Source: a phage
Direction: 5' to 3' (one strand)
Length of the DNA stretch: 64,000 bases
Sequence record: NC_135729.1
Shown: one piece after another, positions 2,004 through 39,662 of the stretch
Layout of the letters: the number at the start of each line of letters is the position of its first letter
Numbering within the stretch: the stretch's first letter is position 1
Translations under genes and position numbers: made by a program
The notes under the pieces: generated by a model
Database searches by the model: none
Told to the model about the DNA's origin: nothing
Seen by the model: only the letters and a program-made list of their open reading frames with translations

Positions 2004-3011
2004 TTATTCACCTTTCAGAGTTGCTTTAACAACCAGCTCTGGACGGGTGTTAACTGCCAGCATGGAAGTTTCAGATTCAATCTTCTCTTCACGCAGGTAT
2101 GCAGAGTGTTTATACCACATATACAGTTCCTGTGCTGGGGTATTTGCTTCGTTAACATCATCTGCCGGAGCAAAGTGCAGCTGGAACATCTGATCAATAC
2201 CCATCGGCAGAATGCGAGCTTCTTTCTTAGGAATATTGCCAGAGATATCTTCGATAAAGGTGATACCTTTATGTTCGAACACACGATAAACGCTGTCCTG
2301 ACCGCCAGCACCCAGACGACGACGCAGAGGTTCCTGAGCAGAGCCGTAGTAGGTGTATGCCAGTTCTACCAGCGGGTGGTGAGTGATTGCACTGAAGAAC
2401 TCAGGAGAGCACAGAGCCACGATACGGTAGCCAGCAGCGTTGTCACCAGCTTGCAGGGCGATATGCAGACGAGCGTCTTCCAGAACTTCCATCGGGTCCT
2501 GATCTGCTTTCGCTGGATCAATTTCTACAGATTTCTGGGACACACCCCACAGAGTGTAGTAATCATACTGACAGGTGGTGTCACCTGGTGCATAGGATTT
2601 ACCCAGAATAGCCTGGAACAGCGCTTTCTCACGCAGTGCTTCATGAGAAACACGGATACGGCGAACAACGCGGGTTACTACGTCCTGAACAGTTTTCGGA
2701 GCATCAGGGGTGAAGTAACGACGGAAGTTCTGAACATCTGCTGCGGTGATGCCTTTGTCCAGAGGGAAGAACGGGATGTTCAGGTTTTTAACCTGAGCAC
2801 GTTCACTACCAACGTAATTACGCTCACCACCACGACGGCGTGCCGGAATGTCGGTTACAACTTCATCAACACGCTCGATCTGAGCAATCGTTGAGGTGCC
2901 GAGACGGGTTTCGAACAGATCCATACCAGTAATCAGTCGGAATTGGCGCGGAACAAGGTCCAGAGTAGCACCTAAATCAACAATGCCAAATTCATCTTTA
3001 CGAGTAATCAT
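2004..3011 (-). CDS. putative major capsid protein
   Basis: 335 aa; sits after portal-scaffold-small protein in lambda-like order; followed by the strongest terminator in the block; no motif-level proof. Confidence 0.5.
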   Translation of the reverse strand: MITRKDEFGIVDLGATLDLVPRQFRLITGMDLFETRLGTSTIAQIERVDEVVTDIPARRRGGERNYVGSERAQVKNLNIPFFPLDKGITAADVQNFRRYFTPDAPKTVQDVVTRVVRRIRVSHEALREKALFQAILGKSYAPGDTTCQYDYYTLWGVSQKSVEIDPAKADQDPMEVLEDARLHIALQAGDNAAGYRIVALCSPEFFSAITHHPLVELAYTYYGSAQEPLRRRLGAGGQDSVYRVFEHKGITFIEDISGNIPKKEARILPMGIDQMFQLHFAPADDVNEANTPAQELYMWYKHSAYLREEKIESETSMLAVNTRPELVVKATLKGE

Positions 3012-3059
3012 TTATTTCTCCAAAGTAAAACTTAAATATTTTCCCGAACAATTTAGGGC

Positions 3060-3449
3060 TTACTCTTCACCAAGAGTCTGGACCTGAACCTTGTTACCCA
3101 GAGCCTCAAGCTTGTCTAACACAGCCTGTTCTGCTTTAGCACCACCAGTTGCCAGCAATTTATCCTTGGCAAAAGTAACACCACGCACAGCAACAACCAG
3201 TTTATATTTCTTTGTGCCAAGAGGTTCAGCGATATGTACTTTACCAGCAGCGTCCGGAATTAAAGCACGATCCACCAGAACGCCATAGGCGTCTGAACCG
3301 TCCTGATTGGCAATGCTACCATCTTTGGTCACAACCGTGCCAGCATGATGGTGCTCTGTCAGTGTAATTTCCATCTCTTTAAAATTGTAGCCAGCATCGC
3401 TAGAATCAACTTTGCCGAGCACGATATCAGAATATTGAGCGGTAATCAT
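3060..3449 (-). CDS. putative head decoration / capsid accessory protein
   Basis: 129-aa ORF between scaffold and capsid genes; assignment by position only. Confidence 0.3.
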   Translation of the reverse strand: MITAQYSDIVLGKVDSSDAGYNFKEMEITLTEHHHAGTVVTKDGSIANQDGSDAYGVLVDRALIPDAAGKVHIAEPLGTKKYKLVVAVRGVTFAKDKLLATGGAKAEQAVLDKLEALGNKVQVQTLGEE

Positions 3450-3469
3450 TTATTTCCCCCGTTAATGTC

Positions 3470-4447
3470 TTATTTGTTAGATTCTGCACGTGCACGAGCA
3501 AGTGCTTTTGCAACGTTTTCAGCAAGAATTTCTTCTGCGGATTTTGCAATATCATCCACAACAGGTTCGCCATCATTACCATGTTCAGTGGTGGCAAACT
3601 CTTCTTTAGTTTTATGCACCTCTGCTTCCAGCTCTTCAATTTTTGCTTGAGCTTTCTCCAGCATAGCTACGATAGGTTCGTTAGCTTTTTCCAGCATGAA
3701 GTCAACCAGTGTTGCGTGATCTTCTTCACCAACAAAGCTTAAAGCTTGAGCCTTAGTCAGCATTTTAGCTTTTTCAACTTCAACCTGGGCCTTGATGATT
3801 TCTTCAGCTTTACTCTGGGTTGCTTTCAGCTCTTCTACTTGCTTCAGCAGATCCAGATACTCTTTAGTTTTGGTTACGTCCACCGGATTCTCCTCGGTAT
3901 TTGCGGATTTTGCAACATCATCCACCTCGGTAGTTTTATCCACCTCAGCAGGTTCCTGTACCGCCTTGATCAGGTTCCCTTCTTTATCGAAGAGATCAGC
4001 GGTTACTTGTTCAAAAATCTGTTGTGTTTTTAACAGACTGTACTGATCTACCACACTAAGCTGCTTGCCTTCTTTTGCAGCCTTATGAATGGTCACGTTA
4101 TCACAACGCTCTTCCAGCCATGCAATACAAGACTCTGCGTCAGCTTGCGCCCATTCCCAATCAGGATGCTCTTTAGCCCAAGCCTCCTCTTCAATCTCAA
4201 AACCAAGCATGTGTGCAAGTGCTTTAGCATCATCATACCACATATCGAAGAAACGACGCAGGTATTCTTCAAAACTAAGCTCCACAGTAACTTGGCGAAG
4301 TGCCTTAACAATATCGTCTGTTAACTGCTCAGGCTTAAGATCACTCTTCATCAAAAGAGATACAGGTCTGTTGTTAGCGCTATAGCCTTGCGCCTTGTGG
4401 CACAGGGCAATCCCCTTCTCTTTAATAGTAATCGTTTTTTCAGACAT
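3470..4447 (-). CDS. putative scaffolding protein
   Basis: 325 aa, strongly acidic, Glu/Lys/Ala-rich predicted coiled coil, between portal and capsid genes. Confidence 0.5.
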   Translation of the reverse strand: MSEKTITIKEKGIALCHKAQGYSANNRPVSLLMKSDLKPEQLTDDIVKALRQVTVELSFEEYLRRFFDMWYDDAKALAHMLGFEIEEEAWAKEHPDWEWAQADAESCIAWLEERCDNVTIHKAAKEGKQLSVVDQYSLLKTQQIFEQVTADLFDKEGNLIKAVQEPAEVDKTTEVDDVAKSANTEENPVDVTKTKEYLDLLKQVEELKATQSKAEEIIKAQVEVEKAKMLTKAQALSFVGEEDHATLVDFMLEKANEPIVAMLEKAQAKIEELEAEVHKTKEEFATTEHGNDGEPVVDDIAKSAEEILAENVAKALARARAESNK

Positions 4448-4866
4448 TATTCATTGCCCTCTTCTACAACACTGATCCCGAAGTTTACGTTGGTAATTTC
4501 ACCAGTTTCTTCATCAACATTACCTGTTGCCTGAATGCTTAGGCCACCAACAATGCCAGCCTTCTTAGCTTCCCATAGTTCAGGATTATTGTATTTAACT
4601 TTAGCAACCCAAGAGCCAGCCTTGATGACCTGCTCAGTGCCAATTACTACAACATCAAACTCTTCTTGAATCCACGTCTTTTCAATGGTGAAAGCATCTG
4701 TAGAGGTCAAGTGGAAAAGGTTCTCAGAAACTAGGCCTGCGGCGTATGCTGCGTCCCAGTTATCTTTGGCCTTTTTGATGGTGTCTTTACTCATCCACTC
4801 ACCGTGAGCATCTTTAGTGTCAGGTTCGTAGATGATTTCGTAGGAAATCATTTCTTCCTGTGGCAT
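4447..4866 (-). CDS. head morphogenesis protein (possible prohead protease)
   Basis: ORF between portal and scaffold; start moved to internal ATG at 4866 with GGGGA Shine-Dalgarno because the track start overlaps the portal gene. Confidence 0.3.
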   Translation of the reverse strand: MPQEEMISYEIIYEPDTKDAHGEWMSKDTIKKAKDNWDAAYAAGLVSENLFHLTSTDAFTIEKTWIQEEFDVVVIGTEQVIKAGSWVAKVKYNNPELWEAKKAGIVGGLSIQATGNVDEETGEITNVNFGISVVEEGNE

Positions 4867-4933
4867 CTTATTCCCCATGTGGATTATTTTATCACGCCAA
4901 AGGAGGTTTTGCAACCCCCTGTGTTGATAATTT

Positions 4934-6490
4934 TTAATTTTCCATGTTGGATATGGAATTATCTCTGGTTGATGACATCTTAGAAGTGCCGTTGCCAGTG
5001 GATCCTGCAGCCATTCCATCACCAGCCCTACTGATGTCCTGGCCCAAGAGCTTCATCAGCTCTTCCTGATCCATGTCCTCGTCAAATCTTTCATCAAACC
5101 CGCCTACTTCAAGAATCTTATTAATTACTGCAGGAGTTTTTGGCAAGTAACCTACAGCACCGATCCTCTGGACAAACTTGGAGAAGCTCTCCATGTCCAC
5201 CTCTTCAATCAGACCAGGTTTCAGTTTAGGCATATCATCATCTTCAAGGATGATACCATTCAATGCCAGAAGCTGTGGAATAAGATCTTTATTGAAGGCC
5301 TCAGTGATAATATCTATATCACGCTGAACAAAATGACCATGGATAGACTGTTTTGACTCAGACAGAGAGAAGGATCCAACGTTATCGTTACCGAGGTTAA
5401 TAAAGCCAGCACCGAAACGGTCAAGAATCGCCTTCTTACGGGCATCAATCAAATCTTTAGTGGAATACTGCTTACCCATACCGTCAACCCCCTTCAGGGT
5501 CATGGAGTAAAGCTCTTTACCAGACTTATCTCTGTCAGACGGAAGTATAAAGAAACTTTGCTCACCACTATGGGCGTTTGCTGCGTCAAGCATAAGGTCT
5601 GCAACCATTCTCCCTTCCATTGAATTCGGGTCAATGCTGGCCTTGTTCAAAATATTGGAAGGAATTTTCAGCTCAAGCACACCACCAAGGTCTTTGGAAC
5701 AGCCAACAACCTCAAGGTTTTCAATCAGAACTTTCTCACGGAAAGATCTGTAGCAACCTATCATCGGTGACACACCTGCAGGGTTAGATTCTGTTCCTGA
5801 CAGGGTCATGAGCATAAGCTTTTTAGCAGGGATGAAAATTTCAGGCTCATTAAAGCCTTTTGAAGGCATTGCAGCAAGAGGTCCAGCCCAGCGTGCATTC
5901 TGAGTGTTTAGAAATGCATTAGGTGACTGATAAATACCTGTCAGTGTTCTACTATTCTTGTCAAAAACAAACGGCTCTGATCTGGACAAACTAGCCTGAG
6001 GTCGGAATGCAATTTTATCAATAAGAAGCATCCCGGCATATTTACCTTCTCTCTCTCTGCGGTATACTTTCTCAAACAGTGAAAAACCATACTCGTTAAA
6101 GGTAGCTGCGCTTCTTGCAATATCTCGAAGAGTTTGTTGGTTTGCCAAATTACGCAAAGAATACTCTATAAGCTCGGCAGCTTTCTTAGAGTCTTCACTT
6201 TTAACATTATAAAGGATCTTAAAATCATTAAATGCTTTCGTGATGAAAACATATTTTGTATCTAAGGCAGTAGCAACTGTGGAATCACATTTCATAGTCT
6301 CCACTGTAGCAATCAGCTGAGGCCAACGCAATTCCTCAACCATCATAGATTGCGACTCTGCCATAATTTGGGAAAGTGCGCCAGAACCGATCTCACTCAT
6401 ACGAACATTATGAGTTGGTGCGCCTGCGTTCCCAGATTTATTCACAGTTTTGGCTGTGGCGTTGTGTTTCCTGCGGTTCTTTTTGGACAC
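4934..6490 (-). CDS. portal protein
   Basis: 518 aa; size and position immediately downstream of large terminase. Confidence 0.65.
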   Translation of the reverse strand: MSKKNRRKHNATAKTVNKSGNAGAPTHNVRMSEIGSGALSQIMAESQSMMVEELRWPQLIATVETMKCDSTVATALDTKYVFITKAFNDFKILYNVKSEDSKKAAELIEYSLRNLANQQTLRDIARSAATFNEYGFSLFEKVYRREREGKYAGMLLIDKIAFRPQASLSRSEPFVFDKNSRTLTGIYQSPNAFLNTQNARWAGPLAAMPSKGFNEPEIFIPAKKLMLMTLSGTESNPAGVSPMIGCYRSFREKVLIENLEVVGCSKDLGGVLELKIPSNILNKASIDPNSMEGRMVADLMLDAANAHSGEQSFFILPSDRDKSGKELYSMTLKGVDGMGKQYSTKDLIDARKKAILDRFGAGFINLGNDNVGSFSLSESKQSIHGHFVQRDIDIITEAFNKDLIPQLLALNGIILEDDDMPKLKPGLIEEVDMESFSKFVQRIGAVGYLPKTPAVINKILEVGGFDERFDEDMDQEELMKLLGQDISRAGDGMAAGSTGNGTSKMSSTRDNSISNMEN

Positions 6491-6592: not shown

Positions 6593-8140
6593 TTAGATAA
6601 AACGCTTGAACATAGAAGGTGATGAGATTGATGGAATCACACAAGGAAGTGCTACCTCCTCTTTCTCCAGGAAATTAATCGCAGAAGCTACACAGTCGGC
6701 CCAGTCGTCTTTCCTGTTAAATGTTGATCTTTCCCCGTTGAATTTTTCAAGTTCAGTCAGAAATGCTTCCAGAGTATCAGGATGGAAACTGGATTTTACA
6801 ATCCTAACCATTCCTTGTTGGGCAAGATTGGCAAAAGGTGAGAACCTTGTCAGTTTAGATTTGTTGGAAGGCATTGGGTCTTCTTCAACCCTAAACCCTT
6901 CGGCGAGCAAGGATCTGGAGGATGTTAAGAACTCACTCTTACCTGCCTGACCGGGGTCCACAGAGAATACGATTATACAATCATCACCATCAAACTGCGC
7001 CTGTTTCCTGATGATCACATCTCGTTCACCAGCCTTTTTACAGAACTTGCCTTCCAGACCTGTGGAATACCTCCCGTCATCCACGTTCTCAGGACAATAA
7101 TCACCGGACAGGTAATAAAAGCCGTCGCTATCTTTACTTACCTTAACACTGGCGGTAAAGTCAGGAAATTTATTACCGGAAGTTCTCTCGGTTCCTGCCT
7201 TATCCCATGCCCTGCAAGATACTGATCCAAGGGGTACTCTATCGGCATCACGAAGGAAAGATCTTTGAAAATAGTTTGCACCCTCAGGCTTTGCAAACCA
7301 GTTGCCATGAAGAAGCTGGGCTTTTTCAAGCTCGGGCAGACCTTCAAGAAAAGCAAGGTATTCTGGGTTGTCTCTCAAGCAGACAGGATTATCGAAGATT
7401 GTTGCGCCTATAAACGAGAATGACAACGGTCTTGGCTTGATCTCCACACCCAGTCCGTTAACCGTGGTGTATTTCTCTATCAACTCTTCTTTAGAGTCTC
7501 CCCAGATAAATTCACCGTCGCGTCGGATAAAATATCTTTTCTTACCGCATTTCTCCGGATCTGGATACCCTTCATCGTCCAACCACCATCTAACCAGTTT
7601 GGCAAGCATGTGTTCTGAATCTGGGTTACAGCTGATAACCATTCTTGATGGATACTTTGACTGAGATCGCAGACGAGACATCAGATAGTCTATCTGCTCC
7701 CATTCGAACTGCGTTCCCTCATCGAAGCAAACCATGGTGTACTCAAGCCCTTGATGGTTAAGCTTATCTTGTACATACTCCATGTGGCAGTATTTTACAA
7801 CAGCTCCCTTTTTGCTCCTATCCCACTTGCCAGTGTTCGGATCAAACCGTGGAAAAATGAACTTATGATCCTTCTCTCTGAACTTTGGCTTAATGTTTTC
7901 AGGCAGATCACTATAAATAGCTACTGCTTTAGGCCATAGTCCACCCTCACCTTCCAACTGTGGGGTTGTTCTTCGGAACATAACCACAGAGCTGTGGGGG
8001 TCATCAATAATTTTAAGTGGCATCAACTGCAAGAGGAACGACTTGCCAGACCCTGCGGCACCGCCGATTACCAAAATATCTGCATCGTTTTCTAGGATCA
8101 TCTTCTGCTTTTCAGAACACGGTCCGTAAATCTTAGACAT
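6593..8140 (-). CDS. terminase large subunit
   Basis: Walker A GGAAGSGKS near N-terminus; 515 aa; C-terminal nuclease-sized domain. Confidence 0.8.
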   Translation of the reverse strand: MSKIYGPCSEKQKMILENDADILVIGGAAGSGKSFLLQLMPLKIIDDPHSSVVMFRRTTPQLEGEGGLWPKAVAIYSDLPENIKPKFREKDHKFIFPRFDPNTGKWDRSKKGAVVKYCHMEYVQDKLNHQGLEYTMVCFDEGTQFEWEQIDYLMSRLRSQSKYPSRMVISCNPDSEHMLAKLVRWWLDDEGYPDPEKCGKKRYFIRRDGEFIWGDSKEELIEKYTTVNGLGVEIKPRPLSFSFIGATIFDNPVCLRDNPEYLAFLEGLPELEKAQLLHGNWFAKPEGANYFQRSFLRDADRVPLGSVSCRAWDKAGTERTSGNKFPDFTASVKVSKDSDGFYYLSGDYCPENVDDGRYSTGLEGKFCKKAGERDVIIRKQAQFDGDDCIIVFSVDPGQAGKSEFLTSSRSLLAEGFRVEEDPMPSNKSKLTRFSPFANLAQQGMVRIVKSSFHPDTLEAFLTELEKFNGERSTFNRKDDWADCVASAINFLEKEEVALPCVIPSISSPSMFKRFI

Positions 8141-9243: not shown

Positions 9244-9320
9244 TGGTCTCCACGGAGTGATTCGAACACTCGACCTCCTGATCCCAAATCAGGCGCTCTA
9301 CCAAGCTGAGCTACGCGGAG
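9244..9320 (-). tRNA. tRNA-Pro (anticodon UGG)
   Basis: Cloverleaf read by eye on minus strand; anticodon loop UUUGGGA; T-loop TTCGAAT; C1:G72 pair; CCA encoded. Confidence 0.8.
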
Positions 9321-9331
9321 TATCTACTATT

Positions 9332-9406
9332 TGGTGGCCCTGGGTGGAATTGAACCACCGTCTGGCGATTATGAGTCGCTTGCTTGAACCTTCCAGCTAC
9401 AGGGCC
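9332..9406 (-). tRNA. tRNA-Met (anticodon CAU; could be Ile2/lysidine type)
   Basis: Acceptor GGCCCTG/CAGGGCC; anticodon loop CTCATAA; T-arm GGTGG-TTCAATT-CCACC; CCA encoded. Confidence 0.7.
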
Positions 9407-9407
9407 A

Positions 9408-9483
9408 TGGTGCTGATGGCAGGACTTGAACCCGCAACCTATTGATTACAAATCAATTGCACTACCAATTGTGCTACATCAGC
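9408..9483 (-). tRNA. tRNA-Thr (anticodon UGU)
   Basis: Acceptor GCTGATG/CATCAGC; D-arm GCAC-AATTGGTA-GTGC; anticodon loop TTTGTAA; CCA encoded. Confidence 0.8.
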
Positions 9484-9488
9484 AAAAA

Positions 9489-9587
9489 GGTGCTAGGCGG
9501 TGGAATCGAACCACCTATGTATTCAACGACTACCTCGTCTATTTTCAGGATTAAAAATCCTCGCCCTTGCCAAAGGGCTTACCTAGC
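9489..9587 (-). tRNA. atypical tRNA-like element (99 nt; candidate anticodon UUU)
   Basis: Canonical acceptor, D-arm, anticodon-like hairpin and T-arm (GGTGG-TTCGATT-CCACC), but about 29 nt separate anticodon stem and T-stem; ends in CC not CCA. Confidence 0.35.
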
Positions 9588-9685
9588 TCAATATGTTGAC
9601 CATGTTGCTAGTCGGCGATGACGACTGTAACATTTGATAATCCGGTTCTGCTTCCGGCTTTCGCTTAATTGCAAGGTCAACAATG

Positions 9686-9776
9686 TGGCGGAGAGTAATG
9701 GAATCGAACCATCATCGAGTCATCCTCAACGGGACGGTTTTCAAGACCGCTTGAGCACCATTGCTCCCTACCCTCC
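9686..9776 (-). tRNA. tRNA-Ser (anticodon UGA), type II
   Basis: Acceptor GGAGGGT/ACTCTCC; anticodon loop CTTGAAA; long variable arm; 91 nt; CCA encoded. Confidence 0.7.
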
Positions 9777-9891
9777 TTTATAAATTATACTGATAATGAC
9801 ACTGATTTTCGAGCAGTTAGTGACTAGTATAAACGACGATAAATATCAATGCCATTATCTGTATTATTTATGCATCTAAAAAATATAAATT

Positions 9892-9978
9892 TGGTGGGGA
9901 GTGGTGGAGTCGAACCACCCGAGTCGCAATGACAATAGATTTACAGTCTACACCGCTACCTCTACGGGATAACTCCCC
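9892..9978 (-). tRNA. tRNA-Tyr (anticodon GUA), type II
   Basis: Acceptor GGGGAGT/ACTCCCC; anticodon loop CTGTAAA; T-arm GGTGG-TTCGACT-CCACC; 87 nt; CCA encoded. Confidence 0.75.
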
Positions 9979-9982
9979 AATT

Positions 9983-10057
9983 TGGCACCCCGTACTGGAC
10001 TCGAACCAGTGTCAACGGCTTAGAAGGCCGCTGCTTTATCCACTAAGCTAACAGGGC
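9983..10057 (-). tRNA. tRNA-Arg (anticodon UCU)
   Basis: D-arm GCTT-AGTGGATA-AAGC; anticodon loop CTTCTAA; T-arm ACTGG-TTCGAGT-CCAGT; CCA encoded. Confidence 0.75.
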
Positions 10058-10153
10058 ACTGGGTGGCTTTCTTTTACACCTTAGCCGCCAGAAAAGGTGG
10101 GAGACCATGTTTACAATATTACACTGTTAAGCAAAGTTTGTCAAGAAAATATT

Positions 10154-35092: not shown

Positions 35093-36112
35093 TTGACAGA
35101 AGCCACAAGGATGTGGCATACTTGGCTAATCTATGAGAACCAAGAGGGATCAAAGATGCCTAGAGGAAAACAACTTACAACTGAAGAATTTACAAAAAGA
35201 GCTAGAGAAGTACATGGCGATAAATATGACTATTCAAAAACCGTATATAAAACTGCTAAAAGTAAGGTTGTAATTGTATGCCCTGTTCATGGTGAGTTTA
35301 CGCAGATCGCTGGACATCATATCCTTGACGGTAGTGGGTGTCCTAAGTGTGGTAGAGTGCCAGTAGGCAATAAGCTTAGAAACGATTCTAGTGATATTAT
35401 CAAAAAATTTGTAAAAATCCACGGTGACACCTATGATTATTCTAAGGTTGAATATGTTAACTATAAAACTCCTGTAAAAATTGTATGCCCTGAGCACGGA
35501 GTGTTCTTGCAATCCCCATCTAACCATTTGAAAGGCCAAGGGTGCCCTGAGTGTAGTAAACTCATTAGCGCAGCAAAAAGGAATAAAGGCCCTGAATTCA
35601 TAGAAAGAGCCAAAGAAATCCATGGCGATAAATATGACTACTCTTTTGTAGATTATATGACTTGCGAAGATAAGGTAGAGATAATCTGCAACACTTGTGG
35701 AAATCACTTCACCCAGACACCTTCTTGCCACCTGTCTGGTCGTGGATGCCCTAAATGTGCCAAAAACGGTTTCTTATCTCACAACTATGGGAAGCTTTAC
35801 CTCATGGTTGATAACTTAGAAGCGCCAACACTTATGAAGATCGGTGTGAGCGTCAATGTAGAAGCGAGGAAGGGAAGGATATTAAGAGCATCCAAGAAGG
35901 CTGGTGCAGGTATTTATGATCTCCACATAGTAAAAACATGGGGCGGATCGACTGAAAACATGCTGAGTGTAGAAAAATCTGTGCATGAAGCCTTCAATAA
36001 GTATAAAATAAACTTCTCTAAAGTATTTAGTGGAAGCACTGAATTCTTTCACTACAGACCTGAAGTGTTTAGCATAGTGGAAGCAGTATACAAAGAGATC
36101 TGTGGTAAATGA
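35093..36112 (+). CDS. homing-endonuclease-like protein (repeated Zn-ribbon modules)
   Basis: Four repeats of HGDKYDYSK..V.CP.HG.F.Q..H..G.GCP.C; C-terminal EFFHY segment; inserted between nrdD and nrdG; probable start ATG 35156. Confidence 0.45.
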   Translation: MTEATRMWHTWLIYENQEGSKMPRGKQLTTEEFTKRAREVHGDKYDYSKTVYKTAKSKVVIVCPVHGEFTQIAGHHILDGSGCPKCGRVPVGNKLRNDSSDIIKKFVKIHGDTYDYSKVEYVNYKTPVKIVCPEHGVFLQSPSNHLKGQGCPECSKLISAAKRNKGPEFIERAKEIHGDKYDYSFVDYMTCEDKVEIICNTCGNHFTQTPSCHLSGRGCPKCAKNGFLSHNYGKLYLMVDNLEAPTLMKIGVSVNVEARKGRILRASKKAGAGIYDLHIVKTWGGSTENMLSVEKSVHEAFNKYKINFSKVFSGSTEFFHYRPEVFSIVEAVYKEICGK

Positions 36113-36164: not shown

Positions 36165-36281
36165 ATGTCATCGGGTATCTATAAAATCTGCAAGTGCGGT
36201 TGTCATTGTAATCTTCGTTGGTGCAAGGCACTGGACGATTTTATTTGGCATTGCCCTAAATGTGATGCGGAGTATCTATGA
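36165..36281 (+). CDS. small zinc-ribbon protein (38 aa)
   Basis: TAAGGAGGTG before ATG; CKCGCHC and CPKC pairs; stop overlaps nrdG ATG; below ORF-track size cutoff. Confidence 0.35.
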   Translation: MSSGIYKICKCGCHCNLRWCKALDDFIWHCPKCDAEYL

Positions 36282-36751
36282 ATATTGCCGGATACACAGA
36301 AATATCTTACACCGAAGGGCCAGGTATTAGAACTGCCTTATGGGTATCTGGGTGCCCACACGCTTGCCCTGGTTGCTTTAATCAGGCATTTTGGTCAAAA
36401 GATAAGGGGAGAGAGTTTACTGAAGAAGACTTGCAAAAAATCTTGTCAGATTTAGATAACCCGTCTGTGTGCGGTATCTCTCTGCTGGGTGGAGAACCCT
36501 TAGCATACTATAATGAGCCAGATATTATTAGCCTGATGGAGAAAATTAAGGAAAAATTTGGTGACAAGAAAACTATTCTTGTATATACTGGGTTCACATT
36601 TGACCATATCTCTAGTGATGTTCTTAAACTGGCTGATATCATCATTGACGGTAAGTATGTAAAAGATTTACCAACCAAGAAACCGTTCCGAGGTAGCGAT
36701 AACCAAAGAATGTTTAAAAAAGTAGCAGGCGGTTGGGTCCAGGTAGACTAG
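36278..36751 (+). CDS. nrdG: anaerobic ribonucleotide reductase activating protein (radical SAM)
   Basis: CPHACPGCFN radical-SAM cysteine motif; 157 aa. Confidence 0.8.
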   Translation: MNIAGYTEISYTEGPGIRTALWVSGCPHACPGCFNQAFWSKDKGREFTEEDLQKILSDLDNPSVCGISLLGGEPLAYYNEPDIISLMEKIKEKFGDKKTILVYTGFTFDHISSDVLKLADIIIDGKYVKDLPTKKPFRGSDNQRMFKKVAGGWVQVD

Positions 36752-38103: not shown

Positions 38104-38147
38104 TACAGAAGGGTGGTTATTCCACCCTTAAATATCTAAAACAGTTG

Positions 38148-38176
38148 TTGACAAATAGGTAAGCTTTAGATATTAT
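38148..38176 (+). promoter_or_regulatory. sigma70-like promoter
   Basis: GTTGTTGACAAA - 17 nt - TATTAT. Confidence 0.6.
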
Positions 38177-38204: not shown

Positions 38205-38516
38205 ATGGCTACAATACAAGAGAAACTGAATAAAATATACTGCCTGTTTGTCTATAACGGCGAGACAATTTTGGCAAATAAGGGATCCAAGAATGTGTGG
38301 ACCAAGGACAGCGGTGGTAATATAATTAACTTAGCGTTGCTACGTGAGCGCCGACACAGATTCTTTATCGAGTCTCGAATTATTGAAAGCAGCACTTGCT
38401 ACAGAACAGGCGATAAAGTAATTGTTGACAATGATACGTGGTATGTGGTAGACTGGCAATCATTGAGCTGTGATGCTTCTGACAATCGTAAGTATTCCAT
38501 AGTGATTGCTAAATAA
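38205..38516 (+). CDS. hypothetical protein
   Basis: 103-aa ORF with GAGAGAAGGA Shine-Dalgarno. Confidence 0.4.
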   Translation: MATIQEKLNKIYCLFVYNGETILANKGSKNVWTKDSGGNIINLALLRERRHRFFIESRIIESSTCYRTGDKVIVDNDTWYVVDWQSLSCDASDNRKYSIVIAK

Positions 38517-38576: not shown

Positions 38577-39626
38577 ATGAATTTAACACCTCGCAGCACC
38601 ATGGTACACGGCATGAAAGAAAAACAGAACGGTTTCGAACCTATGAGTAATAAAATGTTTGGTATGCCGGGTGGTATTATGGAAACATACAGCTACCCAA
38701 CACCTGTTGTTGACCACGTTCTTTATATCGACGATTTGGAAGACTTACAAGATCATATGTCTCGTCTGCAGACGATCCGTATGGCTCAGCCGGAAGAAAG
38801 CATTCGGGTGATCATCAATAGCCCTGGGGGTTGCGTGCACATTGCAATGGCCTATCTGCAGGCATTCCGCGAGTCTCAGGCAAGCGTTGTTGCACATGCT
38901 GAAGGGATGTGCTGCTCTGCTGGAACAATCTTATGGCTTGGTTGTAAAGAACGTACTGTGGCTCCGGACACAGAGTTTATGTTCCACTACTATCAAGGTG
39001 GCACTTATGGTAACGGTGTGAACATGAATACTCAGGTCAGCTACTGGAAAAAACGTTTTGAACGCCTGATCGAAAAATACTACGGTGGGGTGCTAACAGA
39101 AGATGAGATCGCATCCATCACAGCTGGTGGCGAAGTGTGGTTGGACGGAGAAGAGCTGGCAGCACGCACTGGAGCTATTATTCTGGATGAAGGCAACATA
39201 CAACGCATCCAGAACGGACAAAAACCGAAAAAGCTTCTGGCAAAAGGTGATGAAGAAGGCGTGTTAGGTGAAGCAGGTCTTCCGGAGATTCACCAGTGCA
39301 CATCTTTAGATGAGTTAGTTCATGCTGTTGAATCTGCAAAAGCGGGTGGTTCGAAAGGTGATGTTCACACTGTGCTCCTGAATCTGCAGATGGAGAGTGG
39401 CGAGACCGTCAGAATTGCCCTGGGTGAGATTACTTCAGAAGATCTGCAGAGATTCTCTGTCGTTGAACTTCAGGATATTCTGTCTCAATTGAAGACTACT
39501 CTGAACGGCGGTGAAGAGGTTAAGGTGAAAGATAAGACGCGCAAGCGTCTGGTGGACAATATTATTAAAACAGCAAAAGAGCTCAATGAAAAAATCCTGG
39601 GTGCAGGAATTGTCGAAGAAGCTTAA
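38577..39626 (+). CDS. ClpP-like serine protease with C-terminal extension
   Basis: IINSPGG hallmark, Ser-containing GMCCSAGT, His-containing FMFHYYQG; 349 aa. Confidence 0.5.
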   Translation: MNLTPRSTMVHGMKEKQNGFEPMSNKMFGMPGGIMETYSYPTPVVDHVLYIDDLEDLQDHMSRLQTIRMAQPEESIRVIINSPGGCVHIAMAYLQAFRESQASVVAHAEGMCCSAGTILWLGCKERTVAPDTEFMFHYYQGGTYGNGVNMNTQVSYWKKRFERLIEKYYGGVLTEDEIASITAGGEVWLDGEELAARTGAIILDEGNIQRIQNGQKPKKLLAKGDEEGVLGEAGLPEIHQCTSLDELVHAVESAKAGGSKGDVHTVLLNLQMESGETVRIALGEITSEDLQRFSVVELQDILSQLKTTLNGGEEVKVKDKTRKRLVDNIIKTAKELNEKILGAGIVEEA

Positions 39627-39637
39627 ACATTAATTCT

Positions 39638-39662
39638 AAAGCCCTCTTCGGAGGGCTTTTAC
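39638..39662 (+). terminator. rho-independent terminator
   Basis: AAAGCCCTC-ttcg-GAGGGCTTT followed by T. Confidence 0.6.

Follow-up and report, generated by a model that had tools for sequence, protein, structure and literature searches.

A ClpP-fold serine protease encoded outside the head module of a Vequintavirus, with an altered unfoldase-docking surface

The sequence analyzed in this study, hereafter the window, is a stretch of 64,000 nucleotides (NC_135729.1) that forms part of the genome of a Vequintavirus, an rV5-like Escherichia coli myovirus of about 137 kb. The gene considered here occupies positions 38577..39626 of the plus strand and encodes 349 amino acids (aa) followed by a stop codon, with an ATG start and a TAAGGA ribosome-binding site (RBS) 6 nt upstream. 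From the letters of the sequence alone, it was originally predicted to encode an orphan ClpP-like protease far from the head genes. Over the 2.3 kb around the gene, identity reaches 99.5% with phage slur16 and is 95% or more with about 100 further records, and its counterpart at 99% identity is labelled "ClpP ATP-dependent protease subunit" in more than 100 Vequintavirus (rV5-like) genomes. The codon comparison with the diverged Vequintavirus Mangalyan gave a ratio of nonsynonymous to synonymous substitution rates (dN/dS) of 0.058 for the whole gene, 0.046 for the catalytic core, and 0.056 for the C-terminal domain, with zero nonsynonymous changes in the first 44 codons. The whole-gene ratio points to a functional gene under selection rather than a chance open reading frame (ORF), and together with the RBS and the profile matches described below it bears out the gene call.

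The protein has the ClpP fold, as had been predicted, and profile searches and structure prediction agree on this assignment. The Pfam domain CLP_protease, whose cutoff is 20.2 bits, is matched with 47.7 bits (E=2.1e-12); sequence comparison with the PDB retrieves ClpP chains at about 1e-7, and the profile-profile comparison with cellular ClpPs by hhalign has a probability of 98.5%. In the AlphaFold2 model, built with 24 homologs, the ClpP core (residues 45-220) has pLDDT above 90, and Foldseek aligns the model with many ClpP structures over about 170 columns at E~1e-10 and target TM-scores of 0.65-0.74. Both the handle helix and the Gly-rich strand of ClpP are present in the core. The phage family phrog_5410 is matched at E=1.7e-154 over residues 24-345 of 349, and phrog_1827 at E=2.6e-40. 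The broad Pfam domain is the sole ClpP-type model whose cutoff is passed; the curated ClpP models score far below theirs (TIGR00493, 33.2 versus 308.6 bits; PRK00277, 38.2 versus 249; PRK12553, 39.2 versus 228). The best NCBIfam match is the ClpP-related head-maturation model NF045542, which at 60.4 bits is also below its cutoff of 120, and the model of ClpP-like protease/major capsid protein fusions (NF045540) gives 52 bits. Four head-maturation families, phrog_1684, 94, 2976, and 133, are among the matches as well, the alignment with phrog_1684 reaching residue 256. Weak Pfam and NCBIfam matches to NfeD1b_N and SDH_protease (15.7-18.9 bits) stay below cutoffs of 31-40, and PADLOC yielded no defence or anti-defence match for the protease.

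Four regions can be distinguished in the protein. The N-terminal region (residues 1-44; 38577..38708, plus strand) is predicted to be disordered, since pLDDT in the monomer model falls below 50 at residues 1-40; it carries a motif conserved in the subfamily, N25-x-x-F28-G29...Y40-P41, and has no similarity to the axial loops of ClpP, the profile alignment beginning at residue 13 of mature ClpP. The ClpP-fold catalytic core (residues 45-220; 38709..39236, plus strand), defined by the model confidence, Foldseek, and hhalign, is the most conserved part of the protein. It is followed by a largely disordered linker (residues 221-262; 39237..39362, plus strand), with pLDDT below 50 for residues 223-240 and 258-262 and the lowest conservation of all regions (0.29). 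The last region is a family-specific alpha/beta domain (residues 263-343; 39363..39605, plus strand), made of a beta-hairpin, a short helix, and two long helices, whose core has pLDDT of 80-92 when the domain is modelled alone. The C-terminal extension of roughly 150 aa noticed originally is therefore real (approximately residues 200-349) and consists of a disordered linker and a folded domain. No recognisable fold relative was found for the C-terminal domain of about 100 aa. Profiles of this domain and of the whole family, run against all six-frame ORFs of the window, had zero matches; the window thus contains no paralog, and nothing in it links the C-terminal domain to scaffold or head proteins. 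The protease has neither a membrane anchor nor a signal sequence.

The HMMER comparison with ClpPs from the PDB and hhalign agree in aligning Ser114 (38916-38918), His137 (38985-38987), and Glu186 (39132-39134), all on the plus strand, with Ser97, His122, and Asp171 of E. coli ClpP in mature numbering; the residue mapping was taken from these two methods, as a MAFFT alignment with E. coli ClpP lost register past the catalytic His. The IINSPGG motif named in the original prediction is present as VIINSPGG at residues 78-85; the other core motifs are G-x-C-C-S114-A-G, F-H137-Y-Y-Q-G-G, and G-G-E186-V-W, and the handle helix spans residues 147-169. Conservation was considered in 90 close relatives with the two-domain architecture and in 143 representatives of the wider clade. 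Ser114 and His137 are invariant in both sets (90/90 and 143/143), all 233 sequences have the oxyanion-hole residue Gly85, and both INSPGG and CSAG are kept as motifs. At position 186, 78 of the two-domain relatives have Gln, 12 have Glu, and none has Asp, whereas Asp predominates in the wider clade (105 representatives), ahead of Glu (29), Gln (6), and Thr (3). The prevalence of Asp in the wider clade indicates that the ancestral triad was canonical; the window protein carries a conservative Glu, and most of its two-domain relatives have relaxed the position to Gln. Beside the triad acid, the Arg170 sensor position is occupied by an invariant Gly in the 90 close relatives. Thus the Ser and His segments suspected at the outset align with those of ClpP, but the full S14 triad is not retained, Glu (Gln in most close relatives) taking the place of Asp. 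Other serine hydrolases are known to use Glu as the acid of the triad. We infer an active Ser-His(-Glu) enzyme, in which Glu186 could serve as the acid. A third triad residue that is never Asp in the subfamily, together with the Gly at the sensor position, would also suit a catalytically dead or regulatory mimic of ClpP, which might block Clp components of the host as a decoy. The invariance of Ser, His, and Gly85, the retention of both motifs, the canonical Asp of most wider-family members (105 of 143), and the strong conservation of the core all speak against such a mimic, which we consider very unlikely.

The IGL loops of ClpA and the IGF loops of ClpX dock in a hydrophobic pocket of ClpP, formed by L48, F49, A52, and F82 of one protomer and L23, Y60, Y62, I90, M92, F112, L114, and L189 of the next (bioRxiv 10.1101/820209). 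Nine of these positions were mapped on the phage protein through an alignment at 23% identity, and their conservation was scored with the profile alignment across the 90 close relatives. E. coli ClpP residues L48, Y60, F82, I90, and M92 correspond to the invariant Q65, R77, E99, H107, and E109, respectively; F112 corresponds to T127, kept in 89 of the 90 sequences, and L114 to A129, a position held by Ser or Ala. The positions of F49 (T66, variable among Leu, Val, and Thr) and Y62 (I79, Val or Ile) are partly or fully hydrophobic. Hence seven of the nine mapped IGF/IGL positions (Q65, R77, E99, H107, E109, T127, and S/A129) are polar or charged, and the pocket positions are mostly polar across the 143 representatives of the wider clade too. 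The replacement of the apical hydrophobic pocket by conserved polar and charged residues argues that the protein is not a proteolytic core of the ClpXP or ClpAP type, and the label "ATP-dependent protease subunit" is, on the evidence of these alignments, probably wrong.

Compared with bacterial ClpP (MEROPS family S14; E. coli ClpP, PDB 1TYF and 1YG6), the phage protein shares the fold over about 170 residues, the INSPGG loop, and the Ser and His in register, but differs in the Glu or Gln that replaces Asp, in the polar or charged residues of the IGF/IGL/ADEP pocket, in the Gly at Arg170, in an unrelated N-terminus, and in an additional linker of about 40 aa and C-terminal domain of about 100 aa. 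These features bear on the possibility of a genuine ATP-dependent core, whose ClpP-like rings would recruit host ClpX or ClpA, or would form mixed rings with host ClpP, and so redirect host proteolysis. The ClpP fold with its handle helix and Gly-rich strand is compatible with this scheme, and the strict conservation of the apical surface implies some conserved interface. On the other hand, the scheme has to contend with the polar or charged residues at seven pocket positions, the Gly at the sensor position, the unlike N-terminus, and scores about 10-fold under the ClpP equivalog cutoffs, and we regard it as improbable.

The search for a phage-encoded unfoldase adds to this picture. A tblastn search with E. 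coli ClpX matched 346 phage records, 15 of them named "Escherichia", with one 100% match being a contaminant record. The comparison base includes at least 98 Escherichia Vequintavirus records, and the "Escherichia" matches among those listed belong to other phage types. No ClpX-like gene is thus evident in Vequintaviruses, and these phages appear to have no such supply of their own. The gene of a PhoH-like ATPase next to the protease is conserved in Vequintavirinae and in the cholera phage ICP1, which might favour an ATP-dependent machine, but PhoH is a helicase-like P-loop ATPase rather than an AAA+ unfoldase, and the two genes are not obligately coupled. PhoH is found in 3056 phage records and the protease in 945; among Pseudomonas phages, 184 records have the protease and 124 have PhoH, and in T5-like coliphages PhoH occurs alone. 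On the basis of these uncoupled counts, an obligate partnership with PhoH was rejected as a general rule. The adjacency of the two genes is confined to Vequintavirinae and the ICP1 lineage and looks like inherited gene order. A more speculative variant, in which the neighbouring PhoH-like ATPase is a non-canonical partner of the protease, is at best a very slim prospect.

ClpP-like proteins of phages also include head-maturation proteases, and the head module of the window was examined in this respect. It lies 32-36 kb from the ClpP-like gene and on the opposite strand (2004..6490, minus strand), in agreement with the remote position claimed originally. The module comprises the portal gene (4934..6490), the gene of a 191-aa protease of the XkdF/Peptidase_S78_2 type (4447..5022), a coiled-coil scaffold-like gene (3470..4447), a decoration gene (3060..3449), and the gene of a lambda-E-type capsid protein (2004..3011), all on the minus strand, with an intact large terminase gene (6593..8140, minus strand; 515 aa) beside it. 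The XkdF/S78 protease gene, located between the portal and scaffold-like genes, matches PF14550 at E=1.1e-17 (64.6 bits against a cutoff of 24) and the families phrog_1530 and phrog_3017, annotated as "head maturation protease"; its sequence search against the PDB gave no match, and the assignment rests on Pfam, PHROGs, and published proteomes. The virion proteome of Septuagintavirus W70 (28 proteins) contains the phrog_1530 "capsid maturation protease" and nothing ClpP-like (PMC11370258). Similarly, that of Certrevirus CB7 (26 proteins) contains a 21-kDa "prohead core protein protease" and nothing ClpP-like, all of its proteins coming from CB7_4-37, 55, and 251 (PMC7344957); the ClpP-like gene of CB7 is placed at about CB7_184, a location inferred from synteny with phage CR3. 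Since the head module has its own XkdF/S78 protease and the virion proteomes list that one, the ClpP-like protein is unlikely to be the head protease, and the case that it is the sole prohead protease acting on the capsid, named in the original prediction as one that would refute it, becomes very unlikely. The large terminase gene, intact in the window, is interrupted in phage JES2013 (L001 7093..9523), where a "recombinase endonuclease" gene inserted in it separates two parts; this is a polymorphic mobile insertion within the genus.

A remaining version of the structural role is a protease that matures heads or virions although encoded far from the head genes; its helical C-terminal domain would target it to the procapsid, like a scaffold or targeting tail, and it would act alongside the XkdF-type protein or instead of it. 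Its best argument is that the closest profiles outside the protein's own family are those of head-maturation proteases, NF045542 and the protease/capsid fusion model both scoring above any true ClpP model and the four PHROG families being matched as well; the order protease, flexible linker, and helical domain would also fit. The portal-scaffold slot is nevertheless held by an XkdF/S78_2 protease that is above the Pfam cutoff and is found in related virions, whereas the ClpP-like protein is not detected in the W70 or CB7 virion proteomes, its gene is located on the early/middle strand behind a sigma70-type promoter and among nucleotide-metabolism genes, and the C-terminal domain has no similarity to head-module proteins of the window. 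All 86 sampled members of the wider family match non-head PHROGs best. In addition, the ortholog in ICP1 is grouped with middle genes, whereas the capsid genes of ICP1 are late: gp211 closes the nucleotide-metabolism block gp176-gp211, a subset of which peaks at 12 min, and a separate predicted protease, gp125, belongs to the late capsid cluster gp122-126 (PMC7567579). We therefore regard a remote maturation protease as unlikely. In comparison with ClpP-related head-maturation proteases, which are the nearest outgroup by profile score (NF045542, NF045540, phrog_1684/94/2976/133), are phage-encoded and unfoldase-independent, and often have a C-terminal non-catalytic extension, the window protein stands apart by a score of 60 against a cutoff of 120 bits, by a location outside the head module, by an early/middle-type promoter, and by the XkdF/S78 protein in the slot. 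Its departures from ClpP (pocket, Asp, and curated cutoffs) and from the head-maturation proteases (location and cutoff) make it a variant relative to the characterized systems.

Upstream of the protease, a sigma70-type promoter (38148..38176, plus strand) has the form TTGACA-17-TATTAT and agrees with the consensus at 11 of 12 positions; an A-tract lies upstream of it, and its -35 box is extended to GTTGACA. Strict sites of this type (TTGACA-N16-18-TAWWAT) occur nine times in the window against 0.36 expected, each aligned with the local direction of genes, and the hexamers of the 38148 promoter are conserved in Mangalyan and JES2013. The form with the A-tract and GTTGACA extension was described as a putative early/middle promoter of Certrevirus CB7 (PMC7344957). 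The promoter proposed in the original prediction is thus a real one, but it is not the protease's own: it precedes an ORF of 103 aa (38205..38516, plus strand; phrog_5456, E=2e-39), a conserved upstream neighbour with which the protease shares it and is probably co-transcribed. The other eight strict sites are at 10116, 10521, 18549, 20382, 36755, 45956, 51976, and 63576, and several of the nine have the A-tract and the extended -35 box of the Certrevirus promoter. Same-length homologs of the 103-aa ORF, with 22-31% identity, are located upstream of the protease in phages 4MG and CR3 and in two metagenomic relatives. Its product, for which no Pfam, NCBIfam, or PADLOC match was found, is a candidate partner or regulator of the protease.

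Just 3' of the protease stop codon, a 9-bp GC hairpin with a UUCG loop (39638..39659, plus strand; -15 kcal/mol, z=-2.5) has the same sequence in Mangalyan and JES2013. With no more than four T residues behind it, it missed the T-run criterion of the terminator scanner. The terminator claimed earlier is therefore a stable and conserved hairpin rather than a proper terminator, and we consider it a weak terminator at best or an RNA-stabilising hairpin. Another hairpin, AAGGGTGG-TTAT-TCCACCCTT (38108..38130, plus strand), is situated directly 3' of the PhoH stop codon and 5' of the 38148 promoter. Mangalyan and JES2013 share this hairpin, at which the preceding transcription unit may end.

The protease belongs to a gene block consisting of PhoH, an ORF of about 104 aa (with or without an ORF of about 155 aa), the ClpP-like gene, and a methyltransferase gene, preceded by nrd, glutaredoxin, and lysozyme genes. 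This arrangement is kept in 4MG, CR3, and three metagenomic relatives, at identities down to 38%, and alignment shows that the products of the ORFs of about 104 aa in this block are homologous. In the nrd region, an ORF of 339 aa (35093..36112, plus strand) between nrdD and nrdG (36278..36751) encodes DUF723/DUF4379 zinc-ribbon repeats and a C-terminal T5orf172/MUG113 (GIY-YIG-like) domain; it is absent from this position in JES2013 and is therefore probably a mobile insertion of the homing-endonuclease type.

Though the two-domain form is rare, the protease core is widespread in phages. When 1.84 billion representatives were searched exhaustively with the profile, 7418 proteins matched at E<=1e-3, of which 1763 reached E<=1e-10 and 75 reached E<=1e-30; the full two-domain architecture is present in only about seven representative clusters, and most of the remainder consist of a core of 175-330 aa. 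For each of the 86 members sampled, the matches to phrog_5410 and phrog_1827, both in the category "other", are better than that to any head-maturation PHROG. This clade, labelled "ATP-dependent protease", spans ICP1, Pakpunavirus, N4-like, T5-like, and T4-like phages, and its contexts are non-structural wherever examined, that is, in early/middle or nucleotide-metabolism blocks. For instance, the clade member adjoins ribonucleotide reductase (RNR) genes in an N4-like Alteromonas phage and a dNMP kinase gene in a T5-like Klebsiella phage; in a Pakpunavirus its neighbours are small early genes, with those for dCMP deaminase and DNA ligase nearby, and in a T4-like contig it adjoins homologs of gp33, gp59, and gp32. 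Hence the term "orphan" applies insofar as the gene is outside the head module, but this is less unusual than it seemed originally, the gene being part of a large catalogued non-head clade. The gene itself is already known, being annotated by homology in more than 100 GenBank records and catalogued as phrog_5410. A very distant relative (P0099, E=7e-12; L013 4158..5645, contig JAPOGW010002213.1) is encoded directly 3' of a gene of Peptidase_S80, the phiKZ-type prohead protease; this is a pair of protease families different from that in the window phage.

In ICP1, the order nrd, lysozyme, PhoH, and ClpP-like gene resembles that of the window, and gp211 is 36% identical to the window protein over the core, with Ser and His kept and a non-head context; it differs in having Asp at the third triad position and a C-terminal half unrelated in sequence. 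Most phrog_1827 proteins, unlike the window protein, are bare cores of about 200 aa without the C-terminal domain or the partner ORF of about 104 aa. The recurrence of the gene beside nucleotide-metabolism genes in unrelated virulent phage lineages, and the prevalence of bare cores of about 175-230 aa with no targeting domain in the wider family, are consistent with non-specific recycling of peptides and amino acids, in which an open-pore ring would degrade unfolded host proteins and peptides and feed phage synthesis, a counterpart to the nucleotide-salvage genes nearby. This is a sub-version of the role proposed below; it seems rather unlikely for the two-domain subfamily, which keeps both the C-terminal domain and the partner ORF under purifying selection, suggesting specific recognition.

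Based on the fold, the conservation of Ser and His, purifying selection, the genomic context, the loss of the docking pocket, and the presence of a separate head protease, we propose with moderate confidence that the gene encodes a non-structural, early/middle-expressed ClpP-fold serine protease that is independent of an unfoldase and uses its C-terminal domain, and perhaps the 103-aa protein, for recognition. Under this proposal, the protease and the 103-aa protein would be made from the early/middle promoter of the host-sigma70 type, and the protease, of ancestral stock shared with ClpP-like head-maturation proteases, would act in the infected cytoplasm as a self-contained peptidase or endopeptidase, in an oligomeric state that is likewise a prediction. 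The C-terminal domain on its flexible tether, perhaps aided by the 103-aa protein, would give the enzyme access to substrates, either host or phage proteins. Other peptidases of this fold also stand alone: B. subtilis TepA is a stand-alone ClpP-fold peptidase without an AAA+ partner, and the SDH-type ClpP-like proteinases (PF01972) and the NfeD/SppA peptidases of family S49 likewise have a ClpP/crotonase-like fold and no AAA+ partner. The window protein differs from these peptidases in profile matches far below the cutoffs, in having no membrane anchor or signal, and in Ser-His-acid rather than Ser-Lys chemistry.

A more specific version, which we put forward tentatively and hold to be possible rather than probable, is an unfoldase-independent compartmental protease that, during takeover, selectively destroys particular host proteins, for example ones involved in defence, stress response, or proteostasis, with the C-terminal domain and the partner of about 104 aa recruiting the substrates. 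In this version, a new interface for docking would be formed by the conserved polar residues found in place of the ClpX/ClpA pocket.

Several points weigh against the proposed unfoldase-independent, non-structural protease. At the level of identity at which the pocket was mapped, positions depend on the alignment, and the real pocket forms between two protomers; an unfoldase could also dock on the conserved polar surface in a non-canonical way. The argument from virion proteomes presumes that W70 and CB7 encode a homolog, which in CB7 is suggested by the synteny with CR3, and absence from virions is compatible with a transient procapsid role, as prohead proteases can leave the capsid and often do so. 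The early/middle timing is deduced from the promoter type and the ICP1 ortholog. The nearest profile relatives are ClpP-related head-maturation proteases (for phrog_1684, E=8e-22), and the layout of protease, linker, and helical C-terminal domain resembles that of protease-scaffold fusions. Finally, the full-text literature searched contained no experiment or functional study on any member of the clade; what it offered was context, from the ICP1 transcriptome and the two virion proteomes.

In hundreds of genomes of virulent phages, this gene bears the name "ATP-dependent Clp protease proteolytic subunit"; among them are rV5-like phages used in therapy and biocontrol and the cholera phage ICP1. 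Our analysis indicates that the "ATP-dependent" part of the name is misleading, the ClpP fold and the Ser/His chemistry being kept and the unfoldase-coupling surface lost; the protein is also, in all likelihood, no head protease and no part of the virion. If the protease cleaves host factors, it would add a proteolytic arm to host takeover or counter-defence by these phages; if it only recycles peptides, it would count as auxiliary metabolism, like PhoH and the nrd genes. In either case, what is gained in practice for now is a correction of the annotation and a clear hypothesis rather than a new principle, and the presence of such a gene in a large lytic phage will be of little surprise to the specialist.

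Two minor observations concern the records and the window as a whole. About 18 records of "Campylobacter phage" (MG0656xx; C10, C12, C14, A12a, A140, A141, and others) are 99% identical to E. coli Vequintaviruses at this locus; some of them are fragments of 1.4-87 kb, and they are probably mislabelled or contaminant assemblies. Elsewhere in the window, a tRNA cluster (9244..10057, minus strand) comprises genes for Pro, Met, Thr, Ser, Tyr, and Arg tRNAs, with only four tRNAs annotated in the equivalent region of JES2013; inside the cluster, at 9489..9587, ARAGORN makes an odd 99-nt call, "tRNA-???", with a 4-base anticodon (atcc).

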